Assembly: GCA_964565285.1 (NCBI GenBank)
Contig: CAZMDL010000015.1
Span: 1-30,763, forward strand
DNA from: an uncultured Candidatus Saccharibacteria bacterium
GTDB taxonomy: Bacteria > Patescibacteriota > Minisyncoccia > Phycocordibacterales > UBA9973
DNA: 30,763 nt
Reading direction: 5' to 3'
Both the position numbers and the translations under genes were made by a program. The notes beneath the pieces were generated by a model. It worked only from the letters and a program-made list of their open reading frames with translations, was not told the origin of the DNA and did no database searches. Below, one piece after another: positions 17,334 to 30,763 of this stretch. Numbering within the stretch: position 1 is the stretch's first letter; every line of letters begins with the position of its first letter.

Positions 17334-17616
17334 AAAAATTATTACAATATTTATATTTGTTATATTTACCTTTACATCTATAGGAGGTTCTTTCCCCCGC
17401 ACCGTAGAAGCTGCAACTGCTAAAACAACCACAACAAAGAAATCTACTACAAAAAAAACAACTAAGAAAAAGGTTATTAAAAAGAAAAAAGAAAGATTGA
17501 TTTTAAACCCTCCTCTTATTACTCTTGATACTGCTCCACATTCCCCAAAACCAGTTACAAAAAAGAAGACAACAACCAAGAAAAAGGTTACAACAAAAAA
17601 GAAAGCAAATGCATAA
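17326..17616 (+). CDS. Small secreted Lys/Thr-rich basic protein
   Basis: ATG 17326 overlaps the M23 stop (ATGATTAA). Signal peptide ends VEA, followed by two K/T tracts around a Pro-rich core. A terminator follows directly. Confidence 0.65.
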   Translation: MIKKIITIFIFVIFTFTSIGGSFPRTVEAATAKTTTTKKSTTKKTTKKKVIKKKKERLILNPPLITLDTAPHSPKPVTKKKTTTKKKVTTKKKANA

Positions 17617-17649
17617 ATTAAAACCACCACAATTGTGGTGGTTTTAATT
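17616..17649. terminator. Bidirectional intrinsic terminator (34-bp perfect palindrome)
   Basis: AATTAAAACCACCACAA|TTGTGGTGGTTTTAATT lies between convergent genes. Confidence 0.8.
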
Positions 17650-19215
17650 ATTTACCTTCGGTCTATACTGCAGTGCTTCTAGTATGTGCGAAGTAGAAAT
17701 ATGTTCACTTCCTTCGAGATCCGCAATAGTGCGAGCAAGTTTGATAGTACGGTGGTATGCGCGGGCGGAGAGCTCTAGGCGCTCTGCACTTTGGTTTAGT
17801 ATTTGTTTTACTTCTTCTGAGAGCGGAGCGAATGTATTTAATTCTTTTACATTCATTTCGCTATTTGTTTTTATTTTTCTTGTGGCTTTTTTAAATCTTT
17901 TTTCTTGAATTTCTCTTGCTTTTAATACTCTTTCTTTAATTGTATTAGTTTTTTCTCCATGTGTTTCATTTGAAGAAAGTTTGTCATAGTCTACAGCACC
18001 TACTGTTACCCAAATATCTACTCTATCCATTATTGGTCCTGAAAGTTTTCTTTTATATCTATCAAGATCCATTTGTTTACATATACAAGCTTTTTGTTTG
18101 TTTCCTTTATGTCCGCACGGGCAGGGGTTCATGGCTGCAACGAGAATAAAGTTTGACGGAAACATTGGAGATCCTCTAGCTCGTGATATGGATACTATAT
18201 TGTCTTCAAGTGGTTGGCGTAGCGATTCTAAAACACGTTTTTCAAATTCTGGAAATTCATCAAGGAACAAAACACCTTTATGTGCTAGAGTTACTTCTCC
18301 TGGTTTTGGGTTTGCTCCACCGCCAATCATAGATACATATGAAGCAGTATGATGAGGAGATCGAAATGGAGGTTCAGTTATTAGTGCTTCTTCTAGCATT
18401 CCTACTATAGAATGTATTCCTGTTATTTCTAGAATATCATCAGTATCTAAATCAGGAAGTATATGTGAAAAAACTCGAGCAAGCATTGTTTTCCCTGTGC
18501 CGGGTGGTCCACTCATTGCAATATTGTGCCCACCGGCGGCAGCAATTTCGAGTCCACGCTTTGCTCCTTCTTGCCCACGAATATCAGAGAAATCTATTTG
18601 ATGAATTTTTTCTTTATGTATTATTTCTGTTTTTATTTGTGGTTGAAGTTTAGGTCGTTCTGGCTCCAAGGCTTCACCTTTTTTGTTATATCTTATTTTG
18701 TATATATGGTCGATTACTTCTCTTAGAGTTCGTGCACCGTATACTGTAATTCCTTCAACTAGTGCCGCTTCGCGTGCATTATCTATAGGTACAAATATTT
18801 CTTTATAACCATTCCTTTTTGCTTCTTGTGTAAGTGGCAAGGCTCCTTTTATGGGTTGTAGTTCTCCGTTTAAAGATAGTTCTCCTAAAAATATTCTTTC
18901 TTCTGTATCAAAATCAATTTCTTCTGCGGAAAGCAGGTATGCAAGTGCTATACCTAGATCAAAATATGCTCCTTCCTTTTTTAAATCTGCCGGAGAAAGA
19001 GATATTACAACTTTTTGGTTTTGATTTTTAGGAGAATTATATCCTGAGTTTTTTAGAGCAGAACTCATTCGATCTTTTGCTTCATCTACAGCTTTATCTG
19101 GTAATCCCACAACAGTAAATGCATGTAGAGCTCCTTTAGTAATATCCACTTCTATTGTGACTATTTTCCCTTTCAAAAGATGCGGTTGTGCCGCATGCAC
19201 TCTTGAGAACGACAT
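17644..19215 (-). CDS. comM: ComM/YifB family Mg-chelatase-like AAA+ ATPase
   Basis: Lon-like N-terminus (VVGLPDKAVDEAKDR), Walker A GPPGTGKT, Walker B LFLDEF, CPCG...CIC zinc site and LSARAYHRTIKLARTIADL. Confidence 0.93.
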   Translation of the reverse strand: MSFSRVHAAQPHLLKGKIVTIEVDITKGALHAFTVVGLPDKAVDEAKDRMSSALKNSGYNSPKNQNQKVVISLSPADLKKEGAYFDLGIALAYLLSAEEIDFDTEERIFLGELSLNGELQPIKGALPLTQEAKRNGYKEIFVPIDNAREAALVEGITVYGARTLREVIDHIYKIRYNKKGEALEPERPKLQPQIKTEIIHKEKIHQIDFSDIRGQEGAKRGLEIAAAGGHNIAMSGPPGTGKTMLARVFSHILPDLDTDDILEITGIHSIVGMLEEALITEPPFRSPHHTASYVSMIGGGANPKPGEVTLAHKGVLFLDEFPEFEKRVLESLRQPLEDNIVSISRARGSPMFPSNFILVAAMNPCPCGHKGNKQKACICKQMDLDRYKRKLSGPIMDRVDIWVTVGAVDYDKLSSNETHGEKTNTIKERVLKAREIQEKRFKKATRKIKTNSEMNVKELNTFAPLSEEVKQILNQSAERLELSARAYHRTIKLARTIADLEGSEHISTSHILEALQYRPKVNN

Positions 19216-25207: not shown

Positions 25208-25281
25208 GATTGGCATATAGTAGCACATATGTTTAAAAAATGCAAGATCTACCTTATAGTGCTATAATTATTGTACGACAT

Positions 25282-26235
25282 ATGAGTACTACGCTTGATA
25301 AATACAAAAGAGAATTTCTTGAACACGTAGAAATTGAAAAAGGTAACAGCCTTTTGACTGTTCGGAATTATGAGCACTATCTCGACCGGTTTTTCAGTAC
25401 TACAAAAGTTTCTGAGCCATCTCAAATTACCGATGAAGTGATTCGAGAGTTCCGACTTCATATTAATCGTCTTCCTGGAGTAAAAGTTCGCGGTCAAAGT
25501 GCCGCCACACTTAAAAAAAATACTCAAAACTATCATTTGATTGCACTCCGCTCATTTTTGAAATATTTAATGAAACGCGGAGTTACTTCCCTTCCCCCTG
25601 ACCGGATTGATCTTGCAAAGATAAAAGAACGTCATCTCGATTTAATTTCAGCCGATGAATTACAGCGTTTGCTTGAAGCGCCGAAAATGCCAGCACTTAC
25701 TAAAGAGAGTCCTAATGATACGCTCAAAATACTTCGTGATAAAGCAATATTAGAATTATTTTTCTCTACAGGGCTTCGTCTTTCGGAATTGTGTTCATTA
25801 AACCGCGACCTTGATTTATCGAAAGATGAATTTTCTATTCGTGGAAAGGGTGAAAAGGTGCGGGTGGTATTTCTTTCAGAATCTGCAAAGGACGCAATTC
25901 GTGAGTATTTAAAAAATAGAAAAGATTTAGATGAACCGATGTTTGTGCAATATTCACGCAATAAAACTAAAAGTAATGAATCTGCTCGGCTTACTCCCCG
26001 CTCTATTGAACGCATTGTAAAATACTATGCGATAAAAGCTGGTATATCAAAAAAAGTAACACCTCACGTGATTCGTCACTCGTTTGCGACTGACCTCCTA
26101 TCAAATGGTGCTGATATCCGCTCTGTGCAAATGATGCTTGGTCATGCAAATATATCCACTACGCAAATATATACCCACGTGACTGATTCCCAACTTCGTG
26201 ATATTCACAAAAAATTTCATAGTAAAGGAAAATAA
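25282..26235 (+). CDS. Site-specific tyrosine recombinase, XerC/XerD-like
   Basis: Complete catalytic set: TGLRLSEL (R), GKGEK (K), HVIRH (HxxR), LGH and TQIY (Y), plus an N-terminal SAM-like domain. Start moved to MSTTLDK (25282), downstream of TGCTATAAT at 25260-25268. Confidence 0.92.
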   Translation: MSTTLDKYKREFLEHVEIEKGNSLLTVRNYEHYLDRFFSTTKVSEPSQITDEVIREFRLHINRLPGVKVRGQSAATLKKNTQNYHLIALRSFLKYLMKRGVTSLPPDRIDLAKIKERHLDLISADELQRLLEAPKMPALTKESPNDTLKILRDKAILELFFSTGLRLSELCSLNRDLDLSKDEFSIRGKGEKVRVVFLSESAKDAIREYLKNRKDLDEPMFVQYSRNKTKSNESARLTPRSIERIVKYYAIKAGISKKVTPHVIRHSFATDLLSNGADIRSVQMMLGHANISTTQIYTHVTDSQLRDIHKKFHSKGK

Positions 26236-28357: not shown

Positions 28358-29878
28358 TTATTTTACTCCGTGTTTTTGATTTAATTTTTTTATTTCTTCT
28401 TCTTCTAATTCTTCTTTTAAATCCTTTGCTTTCTCCCCTATTTTTTTGAGATCTTCTATTGGTAATTTTAGTAGTTCTAGAGCTCTTTTTTCTAAGTACT
28501 CTTCGGTATTTTTTGTAGAATCTTCTATTACTTCTTCAAGTAATGCGTGTAATGTATAACTAAATTTTGGTCCTGGTTTTTCTCCCATTGCAATTAATCT
28601 TTCCCCATCAATCTTTAATTGCCCTACCGAGATAGGGTCGCGGAGTACTTGTTCAAGCATCGCATGGTATTTACGTAGCCTATAAGGGGCTTCTGCTTTT
28701 TTCATTCCCACTCTGTCGCATTCACGAATTTGCATTAGTTCCCATACATGTTCCTTCCCTACCTTCTGTACTATTCGGCGAACCGCAGAAAGTGTGATTT
28801 GCTCTGTATCTGAGAAAAACATATGATTGCGCACCATTGAAACTACAAAATCTGTTGATTTCTTTGAGAATTTTAAACGCTCCATTATTTTTTGTGTCAT
28901 ACGAGCTCCTACAACTTCATGCCCATAGAAAGTGTAGGCTTTTTTCTCCCCTACTCTTCTTGTACGAGGTTTACCAATATCATGAAACAGTGCAGCTAAA
29001 CGAATTTCTGTAGAGAACCCTTTATCGGCTGAGTGTTGTAATGCTTGAACACAATGCTCAAAAACATCGAATATATGTGCTCCACCTTGGGCACACCCAA
29101 TTCCCTCTTCTAATTCTGGAATTATATATTTAAGTAATCCAAGTTTACTCATCATACCTATCCCGATACTTGGATTCTCACTTTCAATAATTTTTACAAA
29201 TTCATCATGGATTCTTTCTTGAGAGATGTTTTTAAGTAAATGAGCATTTTCAATAATTGACTGCATTGTGTCGTACTCTATAGCAAAATTCAATTGTGTG
29301 GAAAACCTAACTGCTCTTAAAATTCTTAATGCGTCTTCATTAAATCTGTCATGAGCCGAACCTACTGATTTTATTATATTGTCCTTTATATCTTCTTGTC
29401 CTTTATAAAGGTCAATTATCTGTCCTTTTGTGCTATAAGCCAATGCATTTACTGTAAAATCACGTCTTTTAAGGTCATCTTCTATGTTTTTACTGAATGT
29501 AACCTCTTCTGGATGACGAAAATCACTATATTTTGCTTCAATTCTGTATGGTGTGACTTCTACTATGTAATATTCTGGTTTTGTTTCATGTGCAACAGCT
29601 GGTTCATCTTTTTTGGTAGTTTCATGTGTAACATTCTTTGGAATACAAACCCCTACGGTTCCAAATGAATTTTCATATATGGTTTTTTCAAATAAAGGTA
29701 TTATTTGTTCTGGATTAGCATTTGTAGTTATATCCCAATCTTTTGGTTCTTTATTTAAAATAAGATCTCTAACAAATCCACCCACAAGAAAAGCCTCAAA
29801 ACCAGCATTTTCGAGTGTTTCTGTTACATGTGTAACATAATTTGGTATTTTTGAGTCATTTATAAGTTTTTGTTTCAT
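28358..29878 (-). CDS. cca: CCA tRNA nucleotidyltransferase (class II) with HD domain
   Basis: FLVGGFVRD, KDWD, DLKRRDFTVNA, EDALRILRAVRF and HD motif ALFHDIGKP. Start moved to MKQKL (29878) because the track start overlaps the tRNA. Confidence 0.93.
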   Translation of the reverse strand: MKQKLINDSKIPNYVTHVTETLENAGFEAFLVGGFVRDLILNKEPKDWDITTNANPEQIIPLFEKTIYENSFGTVGVCIPKNVTHETTKKDEPAVAHETKPEYYIVEVTPYRIEAKYSDFRHPEEVTFSKNIEDDLKRRDFTVNALAYSTKGQIIDLYKGQEDIKDNIIKSVGSAHDRFNEDALRILRAVRFSTQLNFAIEYDTMQSIIENAHLLKNISQERIHDEFVKIIESENPSIGIGMMSKLGLLKYIIPELEEGIGCAQGGAHIFDVFEHCVQALQHSADKGFSTEIRLAALFHDIGKPRTRRVGEKKAYTFYGHEVVGARMTQKIMERLKFSKKSTDFVVSMVRNHMFFSDTEQITLSAVRRIVQKVGKEHVWELMQIRECDRVGMKKAEAPYRLRKYHAMLEQVLRDPISVGQLKIDGERLIAMGEKPGPKFSYTLHALLEEVIEDSTKNTEEYLEKRALELLKLPIEDLKKIGEKAKDLKEELEEEEIKKLNQKHGVK

Positions 29879-29891
29879 ATGAAACTCTTTG

Positions 29892-29963
29892 TGCACCCGC
29901 CAGGACTCGAACCTGGAAAAACGGTTCCGAAGACCGTTGTGATATCCATTTCACCACGGGTGC
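29892..29963 (-). tRNA. tRNA-Arg (anticodon UCG), CCA not encoded
   Basis: Full cloverleaf: acceptor GCACCCG/CGGGTGC, D stem GTGA/TCAC with A20, anticodon arm ACGGT-CTTCGGA-ACCGT and T arm CCAGG-TTCGAGT-CCTGG. Confidence 0.96.
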
Positions 29964-29991
29964 ATACGGTTATTTATTTGACGACTACTTT

Positions 29992-30020
29992 ATTCTATAC
30001 TAAAAGCATATTTTAGTAAA
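29992..30020 (-). promoter_or_regulatory. Promoter for tRNA-Arg and probably cca
   Basis: TTTACT (30015-30020), 17-nt spacer, TAGAAT (29992-29997). Confidence 0.55.
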
Positions 30021-30051
30021 TAATATTATAAAGTAAGATTAAAATTATGAA

Positions 30052-30080
30052 TTGCATTTTTTATTAAAAATGATTATAAT
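30052..30080 (+). promoter_or_regulatory. Promoter for tRNA-Gly
   Basis: TTGCAT (30052-30057), 17-nt spacer, TATAAT (30075-30080). Confidence 0.7.
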
Positions 30081-30110
30081 TTGAAAGTTGTTTTAAGTAT
30101 TATAGGCATT

Positions 30111-30181
30111 GCGGGATTGGTTTAGTGGTAGAACACGTCCTTGCCAAGGATGAGACAGGAGTTCGATTCTCCTATCCCGCA
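30111..30181 (+). tRNA. tRNA-Gly (anticodon GCC), CCA not encoded
   Basis: Acceptor GCGGGAT/ATCCCGC, D stem GTTT/GAAC, anticodon arm CGTCC-TTGCCAA-GGATG and T arm AGGAG-TTCGATT-CTCCT. Confidence 0.96.
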
Positions 30182-30263
30182 CAATTTAATGAAATATGAT
30201 TATAGGTTCTATAAAAGACGTAATCTCTCAGACAGTCTTTAATAACAAAAAATAGCCTTAATT

Positions 30264-30272
30264 TGTGGATAA
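30264..30272 (-). promoter_or_regulatory. Perfect DnaA box
   Basis: TGTGGATAA, the reverse complement of TTATCCACA, in AT-rich intergenic DNA. Confidence 0.55.
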
Positions 30273-30459
30273 CTATGTGTGTATTGTTTATAAGAGACAG
30301 CATTTAAAATAAAAGCCATTTACCTTAAATTATTAAAAAGCTTATTTTATAAGGGTTTTAACATAAAGACAAGTCATAACACGTATATTGTGTCTAATAA
30401 ATAGTAATATGTTTCACGTGGCACACTTTTTATTGTTACATGTGTAACTTATATAGGGT

Positions 30460-30763
30460 ATGAAGAATTTTACTTCAAATTCACAAAAAATAGGGGAGTT
30501 GGGTGAGAATATTGCTTGTAATTTTTTAATAAAGCATGGTTATTCTATTAAGGAAAGGAATTACACAAGAAAATGGGGTGAAATAGATATTATTGCGGAA
30601 AAGGATAATAAGCTTTATTTTTATGAGGTTAAGTCTAAATCAGTTCATTTATCTGAAGGGGTTTCTCATGAAACAAACAATATATACAGACCTGAAGAAA
30701 ATATGCATTCATGGAAGTTAAAAAGGCTGGCTCGTGTTGTGCAGACTTATTTAATTCAAAATA
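30460..30763 (+). CDS. yraN: YraN family (UPF0102) PD-(D/E)xK nuclease-fold protein, 3' end outside window
   Basis: IGELGENIACNFL, ERNYTRKWGEIDIIA and FYEVKS; open to the window end. Missing from the ORF track. Confidence 0.9.
   Translation, partial: MKNFTSNSQKIGELGENIACNFLIKHGYSIKERNYTRKWGEIDIIAEKDNKLYFYEVKSKSVHLSEGVSHETNNIYRPEENMHSWKLKRLARVVQTYLIQN

Follow-up and report, generated by a model that had tools for sequence, protein, structure and literature searches.

Seven 16-base inverted repeats, packed into 1.1 kb near the right end of the 30,763-nucleotide stretch analysed here, most likely serve a Paceibacteria (Parcubacteria/OD1, 'Nomurabacteria'-type) bacterium as its chromosomal centromere, parS. 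This stretch, referred to below as the window, is the whole of one contig (C15) of a metagenome-assembled genome (MAG) of 598,945 bases in 118 contigs, 86% complete and with 33% GC. Judged on sequence, it has all the tested features of a chromosomal parS cluster save the central CG. Few DNA sites bound by proteins are as conserved among bacteria as parS, whose CACGTG core is taken to be invariant; a whole order using mostly non-CG cores offers a natural, testable case of drift in the specificity of a centromere protein.

Our search used the pattern TGTTNCAYRTGNAACA and took as a match any 16-mer with at most one mismatch. Six such 16-mers lie within 29582-30449 of the window, against 0.07 predicted from window shuffles, and an additional weaker copy starts at 30660. 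When the whole assembly was scanned, all six remained confined to one 1.1-kb stretch, and the 13 matches with two mismatches were scattered. An earlier note on this DNA, made from the letters alone, had listed seven 16-mers, five with a CA/TG centre, one with TA and one with CG, and had seen nothing comparable in the rest of the window; reading of 29400-30763 and the pattern scan confirmed both the positions and the centre counts, and at the one-mismatch threshold the second claim was borne out over the entire 599-kb assembly, so that the sites are not spread genome-wide. The sites and the genes that surround them are as follows:

Site 1, 29582-29597, TGTTTCATGTGCAACA: TG centre; inside the expanded loop of cca, encodes V95-A-H-E-T99
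Site 2, 29618-29633, AGTTTCATGTGTAACA: TG centre; inside the expanded loop of cca, encodes V83-T-H-E-T87
Site 3, 29822-29837, TGTTACATGTGTAACA: perfect arms, TG centre; encodes V15-T-H-V-T19 of CCA
Site 4, 29871-29886, TGTTTCATATGAAACT: TA centre, which holds the cca ATG (29878-29876, minus strand)
Site 5, 30410-30425, TGTTTCACGTGGCACA: canonical CG centre, one arm mismatch; intergenic, upstream of yraN
Site 6, 30434-30449, TGTTACATGTGTAACT: TG centre; intergenic, ends 10 nt before the yraN ATG
Site 7, 30660-30675, GGTTTCTCATGAAACA: CA centre, weak, two mismatches; inside yraN, encodes V-S-H-E-T
cca, 28358-29878, minus strand: CCA-adding enzyme with PolyA_pol head, RNA-binding and HD domains; carries sites 1-4
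tRNA-Arg(TCG), 29891-29963, minus strand: member of the conserved locus
tRNA-Gly(GCC), 30111-30182, plus strand: member of the conserved locus
yraN (UPF0102), 30460-30762, plus strand: cut at the contig end; carries site 7

The arms are those of a 16-bp parS inverted repeat (TGTTNCA / TGNAACA), with at most one arm mismatch in six sites and two in the seventh, and most of the window sites retain at least one canonical TGTTNCAC half. Across 331 sites from 80 species half-site positions 2, 3, 4 and 6 are near-invariant in a matrix that is conditioned on the search pattern. As in other chromosomal systems the copies are few and origin-proximal, their position in this genome being inferred from synteny. 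The departure concerns the core: the pan-bacterial chromosomal parS consensus is TGTTNCACGTGAAACA and every consensus in Table 1 of PMC7022226 has a CG centre, which is found here in one site of seven. The position of site 6 is kept in an alignment of related loci (alignment A1), and the weak site 7 is supported by the recurrence of better-matching sites ~200 nt into yraN in at least seven same-genus relatives.

Conservation of the sites and selection on their DNA

The relatives compared belong to the Paceibacteria / 'Candidatus Nomurabacteria' (Parcubacteria, OD1) clade of Patescibacteria. In the 80-species set, made up of loci with a CCA protein identity of 56-74% and scored for sites with at most one arm mismatch and a free centre, the cluster was found in 77 species, with 331 sites against two for a reversed-pattern control. 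Within the genus, perfect-arm sites occur in 25 of 30 other genomes, nearly always at one place per genome, and all 26 loci examined carry one to seven sites on a shared cca/tRNA/yraN synteny.

The orthologue of site 3, at the N-terminus of CCA, is present as V[T/S][H/R]VT in 74 of 79 species, and its codons barely vary. The first Val is GTT in 74/74 cases and the second GTA in 74/74, for background shares in the same genes of 0.36 and 0.28; Thr is ACA in 42/42 (background 0.46), Ser is TCA in 31/32 (0.24), His is CAT in 57/57 (0.65) and Arg is CGT in 12/13 (0.24). The His codon CAC, which would disrupt position 10 of the 16-mer, is never used. Such fixation of synonymous codons argues for selection on DNA and not on protein, and for CA-centred copies being maintained rather than decayed. 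The centre of this orthologous site toggles across species among CA (57), CG (12-13), TG (2) and TA (1), and the different centres can therefore be regarded as variants of one element. On this comparative evidence, the sites are maintained through DNA-level selection.

The same data bear on the notion that the repeats are protein motifs, V-T-H-E-T-type peptides needed by the CCA enzyme and YraN, with the palindromes as a by-product. Peptides of the form V[T/S/A]H[E/V]T do recur in the two proteins, and sites 1-3 are in frame on the cca coding strand. However, two copies are intergenic and codon choice is invariant far past what codon usage would predict. Moreover, sites 1 and 2 are borne by a stretch of ~21 residues, between FGTVGVC and IVEVTPYR, that is inserted in comparison with a CCA-adding enzyme of solved structure (6IBP), and this loop differs among species in length and sequence except for the parS-encoded peptides VTHET, VAHET, VSHET, VARET and RRET. 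The fixed synonymous codons thus rule this explanation out, leaving it a vanishingly small chance.

Origin region and partition proteins

In the closed genome RAAC4_OD1_1 (693,530 bases) the GC skew has its maximum (terminus) at 175.9 kb and its minimum as a flat plateau at 500-518 kb; the parS cluster, whose four sites are the sole matches with a pyrimidine-purine (YR) centre genome-wide, lies within this plateau at 511.66-513.65 kb, and dnaA is found at 552.65 kb on the rising skew flank. Three same-genus genomes (G004, G021 and G024) likewise have their cumulative GC-skew minimum and coding-strand switch within ~10-20 kb of the cluster, and dnaA lies 39-48 kb from it in five genus genomes. 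The window is collinear, in reverse, with 511-542 kb of RAAC4, has a negative GC skew and carries 19 of its 24 open reading frames (ORFs) on the minus strand. From the collinearity with RAAC4, the origin zone would comprise the right end of the window and up to ~11 kb beyond it, with dnaA beyond the left end. These sequence comparisons place the cluster within the zone of the GC-skew minimum, at or within ~12 kb of the predicted oriC and ~40 kb from dnaA. The assignment of a parS-type cluster to the origin region, as put forward in the earlier note, is accordingly supported by one locus per genome across the genus and by its location in the skew or strand-switch zone of four relatives. The accompanying proposal of an origin to the right agrees with the skew plateau, through RAAC4 synteny, and with the predominance of minus-strand ORFs; as a qualification, dnaA would lie ~40 kb to the left. 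In this clade dnaA does not sit at the GC-skew switch at all, being 39-52 kb inside one replichore in RAAC4_OD1_1, G004, G021 and G024; with dnaA ~40 kb off the switch, the cluster is a good marker of the origin region in fragmented MAGs.

The intergenic region between the tRNA genes and yraN holds a further conserved element:

Conserved non-coding block of 36 bp, 30264-30299, plus strand: TGTGGATAACTATGTGTGTATTGTTTATAAGAGACA (also given as TGTGGATAAcTATGTGTGtATTGTTtATAAaaGACA); single copy in this genome

This block opens with a perfect DnaA box (reverse complement TTATCCACA) and was found in 61 of the 80 related loci. It lies between tRNA-Gly and the two parS sites nearest to the yraN start, and relatives show another box-like motif ~36 bp away. 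No dense cluster of DnaA boxes was detected across all of RAAC4 or 230 kb of G004, and the block, judged by eye, was a poor fit to a DnaA-trio. An oriC element, a promoter and some other kind of regulatory site are all possible identities of the block. It is tempting to place oriC in the intergenic region that contains it, a placement to which we incline only tentatively and at somewhat less than even chances; a 250-bp divergent gap in RAAC4, exactly at the skew minimum and 11 kb from the cluster, is an equally good oriC candidate.

With a DnaA-box block 110 bp away, with site 4 covering the cca start codon and with site 6 abutting the yraN start, the palindromes could also be conceived as operators of another DNA-binding protein, be it a cca/tRNA/yraN regulator or an origin-binding factor, that merely resemble parS. 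We regard this as very improbable: perfect canonical TGTTTCACGTGAAACA occurs in the clusters of relatives and nowhere else in their genomes, the arms agree with parS at every position that distinguishes it from the Noc site, the genomes encode one canonical ParB, and most copies lie deep within coding sequence, unlike operators.

The parS reading of the earlier note depended on a ParB being encoded. Pfam ParB_N gave no match in this genome. A tblastn search with the genus ParB retrieved the C-terminal 100 residues of the protein at the very start of contig C111, beside relA/spoT as in relatives; the sequence at C111:2-301 scores 26.5 bits for ParB_C, is 54% identical to residues 238-336 of the genus ParB and is cut by the contig end. 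Therefore parB is present and the ParB_N negative is misleading. Full-length ParB was identified in 22 of 24 same-genus genomes. The genus ParB is canonical, with a ParB_N domain containing GERRLRA, an HTH_ParB and a ParB_C domain, and matches Thermus Spo0J at E = 1e-44. A ParB of the chromosomal type is thus represented by a fragment here and by the full-length protein in relatives, which upholds the earlier reading on this point.

The same note had proposed to check where the sites lie with respect to parAB. In genus genomes parB is 175-270 kb from the cluster, adjoining relA/spoT rather than parA or rsmG, and ParA (AAA_31) was not found in this 86% complete assembly; of 25 good genus genomes, only two had an AAA_31 score above the cut-off. 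The weak CbiA match examined in this genome is CTP synthase, and the CbiA matches of relatives are in long ORFs (~560-580 aa). The ParA partner of a complete ParABS system was therefore not identified. One same-genus genome (G015, contig C30, 16612-28051) carries a second ParB-like match together with a ParA-like (AAA_31) gene on one contig, a pair that is probably a mobile element's own partition system and not a chromosomal one.

Our genome also encodes an SMC_N protein of 752 aa (contig C104:599-2857) and ScpA. In G000, G004, G017, G021 and G024 the sole SMC-like protein has 752-768 aa, with SMC_N matches at both ends; model-bacterial SMC has ~1,200 aa.

The variant core and candidate residues of ParB

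Centres in the 80-species set are CA/TG in 173 sites (52%), CG in 110 (33%), TA in 29 (9%) and other in 19, so that 94% are pyrimidine-purine and 6% are not. Taking one genome per family and perfect arms, the order to which the window belongs has 17 CG, 15 CA/TG and 9 TA centres. In the rest of the phylum (90 genomes, perfect arms, only YR centres searched) the corresponding counts are 43, 4 and 1, a CG share of 90% that extends to other low-GC Patescibacteria. Within the 80-species set the sites inside cca have 129 CA, 46 CG and 18 TA centres and those outside cca 44, 63 and 8, the non-CG share outside the gene being 47% versus 10% elsewhere in the phylum. On these counts the variant core is real and lineage-specific: it is order-wide, neither peculiar to this genome nor general in the phylum. 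Since CG persists at 33% in the clade, relaxation to a pyrimidine-purine centre appears to describe the pattern better than a switch.

Some simple causes of the variant core were considered and rejected. Avoidance of restriction sites does not account for it, as CACGTG is observed 61 times for 59 expected, with ACGT mildly depleted (0.77). Nor does the asymmetric centre seem to have a directional role, the two orientations being found 20 and 24 times outside cca; inside the gene the orientation bias tracks the reading frame (His CAT vs Cys TGT).

We then turn to the protein. With residues numbered from motif spacing, the ParB of this order retains all the residues that contact parS in the Caulobacter structure (Q162, G170, K171, S172, R173, N178, G201 and R204; PMC7383237). 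The specificity switch between ParB and Noc resides in residues 173, 179, 184 and 201 (PMC7383237), which are of the ParB type here (R173, T179, A/S/T184, G201), the Noc-type residues Q173, K179, K184 and R201 being absent. The arms, with G at position 2 and A at 7, are not those of a Noc-binding site (NBS; TATTTCC / GGAAATA). The recognition helix reads GKSR-x-Y-V-[S/T]-N in 16/16 families of the order, that is, with S or T at residue 177, where five CG-only lineages of the Candidate Phyla Radiation (CPR), the ParB proteins of Thermus and Myxococcus and also Noc have A ([V/I]-A-N). In addition, residue 205, next to R204, is Pro in 15 of the 16 families and Ala or Thr elsewhere. A177S/T and A205P thus co-occur with the relaxed core in this order. 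A shifted ParB specificity is plausible, and the two substitutions are a specific, testable candidate for the basis of the relaxed core. The E-Y pair in the recognition helix was rejected as a cause, a CG-only lineage (G131) also having SREY.

Several observations weigh against our interpretation. The ParB of this genome is assembled for its C-terminal 100 residues only, a portion that does not include the helix-turn-helix (HTH). Pfam SMC_hinge had no match in the SMC-like proteins of five genomes, and SMC loading is therefore an assumption. Outside cca CG outnumbers every other centre (63 of 120 sites), hence part of the CA excess reflects the choice of a His over an Arg codon and not a preference of ParB. 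The fraction of C at position 8 climbs weakly with local GC content (Spearman rho 0.30), so mutation pressure contributes; pure AT or CpG mutation pressure was nonetheless found insufficient, given that weak correlation, a rho of 0.18 (not significant) with the CpG observed/expected ratio and the CG centres of other low-GC Patescibacteria. Finally, what links the ParB substitutions to the relaxed core is one event in one lineage, inseparable from shared ancestry, and the association of A177S/T and A205P is thus correlation only.

The prominence of CG outside cca and the weak tie of position 8 to GC content would also be expected of a decaying centromere, in which only the CG-centred sites function and the CA/TG and TA copies are wrecks of CpG decay under AT pressure, bound poorly or not at all. 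CACGTG to CATGTG to CATATG is the transition series that such decay should produce, and the genomic CpG observed/expected ratio is 0.75. Yet the N-terminal cca site is CA-centred in 57 of 74 species with every other synonymous position perfectly fixed, which is unlike a dead site, and decay would leave this genome with one imperfect site. Besides, CACGTG is not depleted genome-wide (see above), the retention of CG centres by other low-GC Patescibacteria speaks against it, and the rarity of non-YR centres indicates that the centre is still constrained. We consider decay improbable.

A maintained parS centromere with a relaxed core could work as follows. A canonical CTP-switch ParB, with its GERRxRA motif, HTH and C-terminal dimerisation domain, would load at the sites and spread over the locus. 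Given that no ParA was found and that a short SMC and ScpA are present, its main role would probably be the organisation of the origin region and SMC loading, as in Streptococcus pneumoniae. The sites are written in frame into cca, at the N-terminal helix, the expanded surface loop and the start codon, with others before and inside yraN. Across the order their two central bases are relaxed from CG to pyrimidine-purine (CA/TG > CG > TA) while the arms stay strict (GTTNCA / TGNAAC), the likely cause being a tolerant ParB in which S/T replaces the A that precedes Asn178, a base-contacting residue, and Pro follows Arg204. With such a ParB, the demands of coding (His CAT vs Arg CGT, an ATG within a site) and a mild AT pressure would drive the centres to CA/TG and TA.

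It can be further speculated that the ParB of the order (A177S/T, A205P) accepts or even prefers CATGTG/CATATG, that ParB-parS sits on an oriC marked by the 36-bp block ~40-50 kb from dnaA, and that origin firing, SMC loading and cca/yraN expression are coupled in these ParA-less cells; as a whole this proposal is doubtful. If true, the relaxed centre would permit parS to overlap His codons and even a start codon.

Known systems and the host locus

The system shares with Spo0J(ParB)-parS of Bacillus subtilis a 16-bp inverted repeat with the same arms, present in several origin-near copies of which some are intragenic, and a ParB with N-terminal CTP-binding, HTH and dimerisation domains. It differs from it in that the centre is mostly CA/TG or TA, the sites are packed into ~1.1 kb at one locus, parB is 175-270 kb off and no ParA (Soj) was found. 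S. pneumoniae has an orphan ParB-parS, with four sites near oriC and no parA, that recruits SMC (PMC7022226). By analogy, with ParB and parS in the absence of ParA, few origin-near sites and genes for SMC-ScpA, SMC recruitment is the likely output here too, and functionally our system looks most like this ParA-less pneumococcal type; nevertheless, the pneumococcal sites keep the CACGTG core, and the SMC-like protein of these bacteria has ~750 aa without a recognisable hinge.

In layout the closest counterpart is Caulobacter crescentus, with a tight cluster of five to seven parS ~8 kb from ori (Tran et al. 2018, PMC5815017), whose natural sites have one conserved half (GTGAAA) and one variable half (PMC5815017). 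The pattern of one canonical and one variant half is shared with our cluster. In contrast, Caulobacter has ParA and MipZ and a parB near the cluster, and in our cluster the variation centres on the innermost base alone. A precedent for re-tuning the bases read in a parS-like palindrome, through a few substitutions in or close to the recognition helix, is Noc-NBS (Jalal et al. 2020, PMC7383237), in which a ParB paralogue has switched its site specificity. NBS departs from parS in the arms (half-site positions 2 and 7) and keeps the CG centre, whereas our sites have parS-type arms and an altered centre; the present case complements the ParB/Noc work, which accounted for arm changes. The ParB of Pseudomonas aeruginosa can use a single canonical half-parS (PMC10419367), but those half-sites are scattered genome-wide and the full-length 16-mers described here are restricted to one locus.

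A search of the available literature on parS in Patescibacteria/CPR retrieved nothing relevant. New here are the contrast between this order and others in the core, the test on synonymous sites, the location of the cluster in a closed genome and the correlation with ParB residues 177 and 205. In practical terms, parS scans that demand CACGTG would miss or under-count the centromeres of these CPR genomes.

Regarding the host locus, an Rfam scan returned the two tRNAs and nothing else, and a promoter/terminator scan of the locus gave no signal above shuffles. In G024 (17563-18248) the tRNA-Arg/tRNA-Gly(GCC) pair that separates cca from yraN is inverted with respect to the window (29891-30182) and five other genus genomes. 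Assemblies tend to break at this locus: in 13 of 80 species fewer than 350 bp separate the cca start from an upstream contig end, in 22 of 80 the end falls within 2.5 kb on that side, and the window itself stops 300 bp into yraN; repeated 16-mers, tRNA genes, strain variation or a coverage peak at the origin are candidate causes. The cca loop of a same-genus genome (G001, contig C32, 3166-3331) contains three copies of TGTTTCCCGTGAAACA and one of TGTTTCACGGGAAACA, with C for A at position 7 of one half-site, the change that separates the Noc site from parS. Lastly, a tyrosine recombinase gene (25240-26235, plus strand; Phage_integrase and SAM-like N-terminal domains) is located at a distance of 3.6 kb from the cluster. 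With 75% identity and conserved synteny in RAAC4, it probably encodes a housekeeping enzyme of the Xer type and not the integrase of a prophage.

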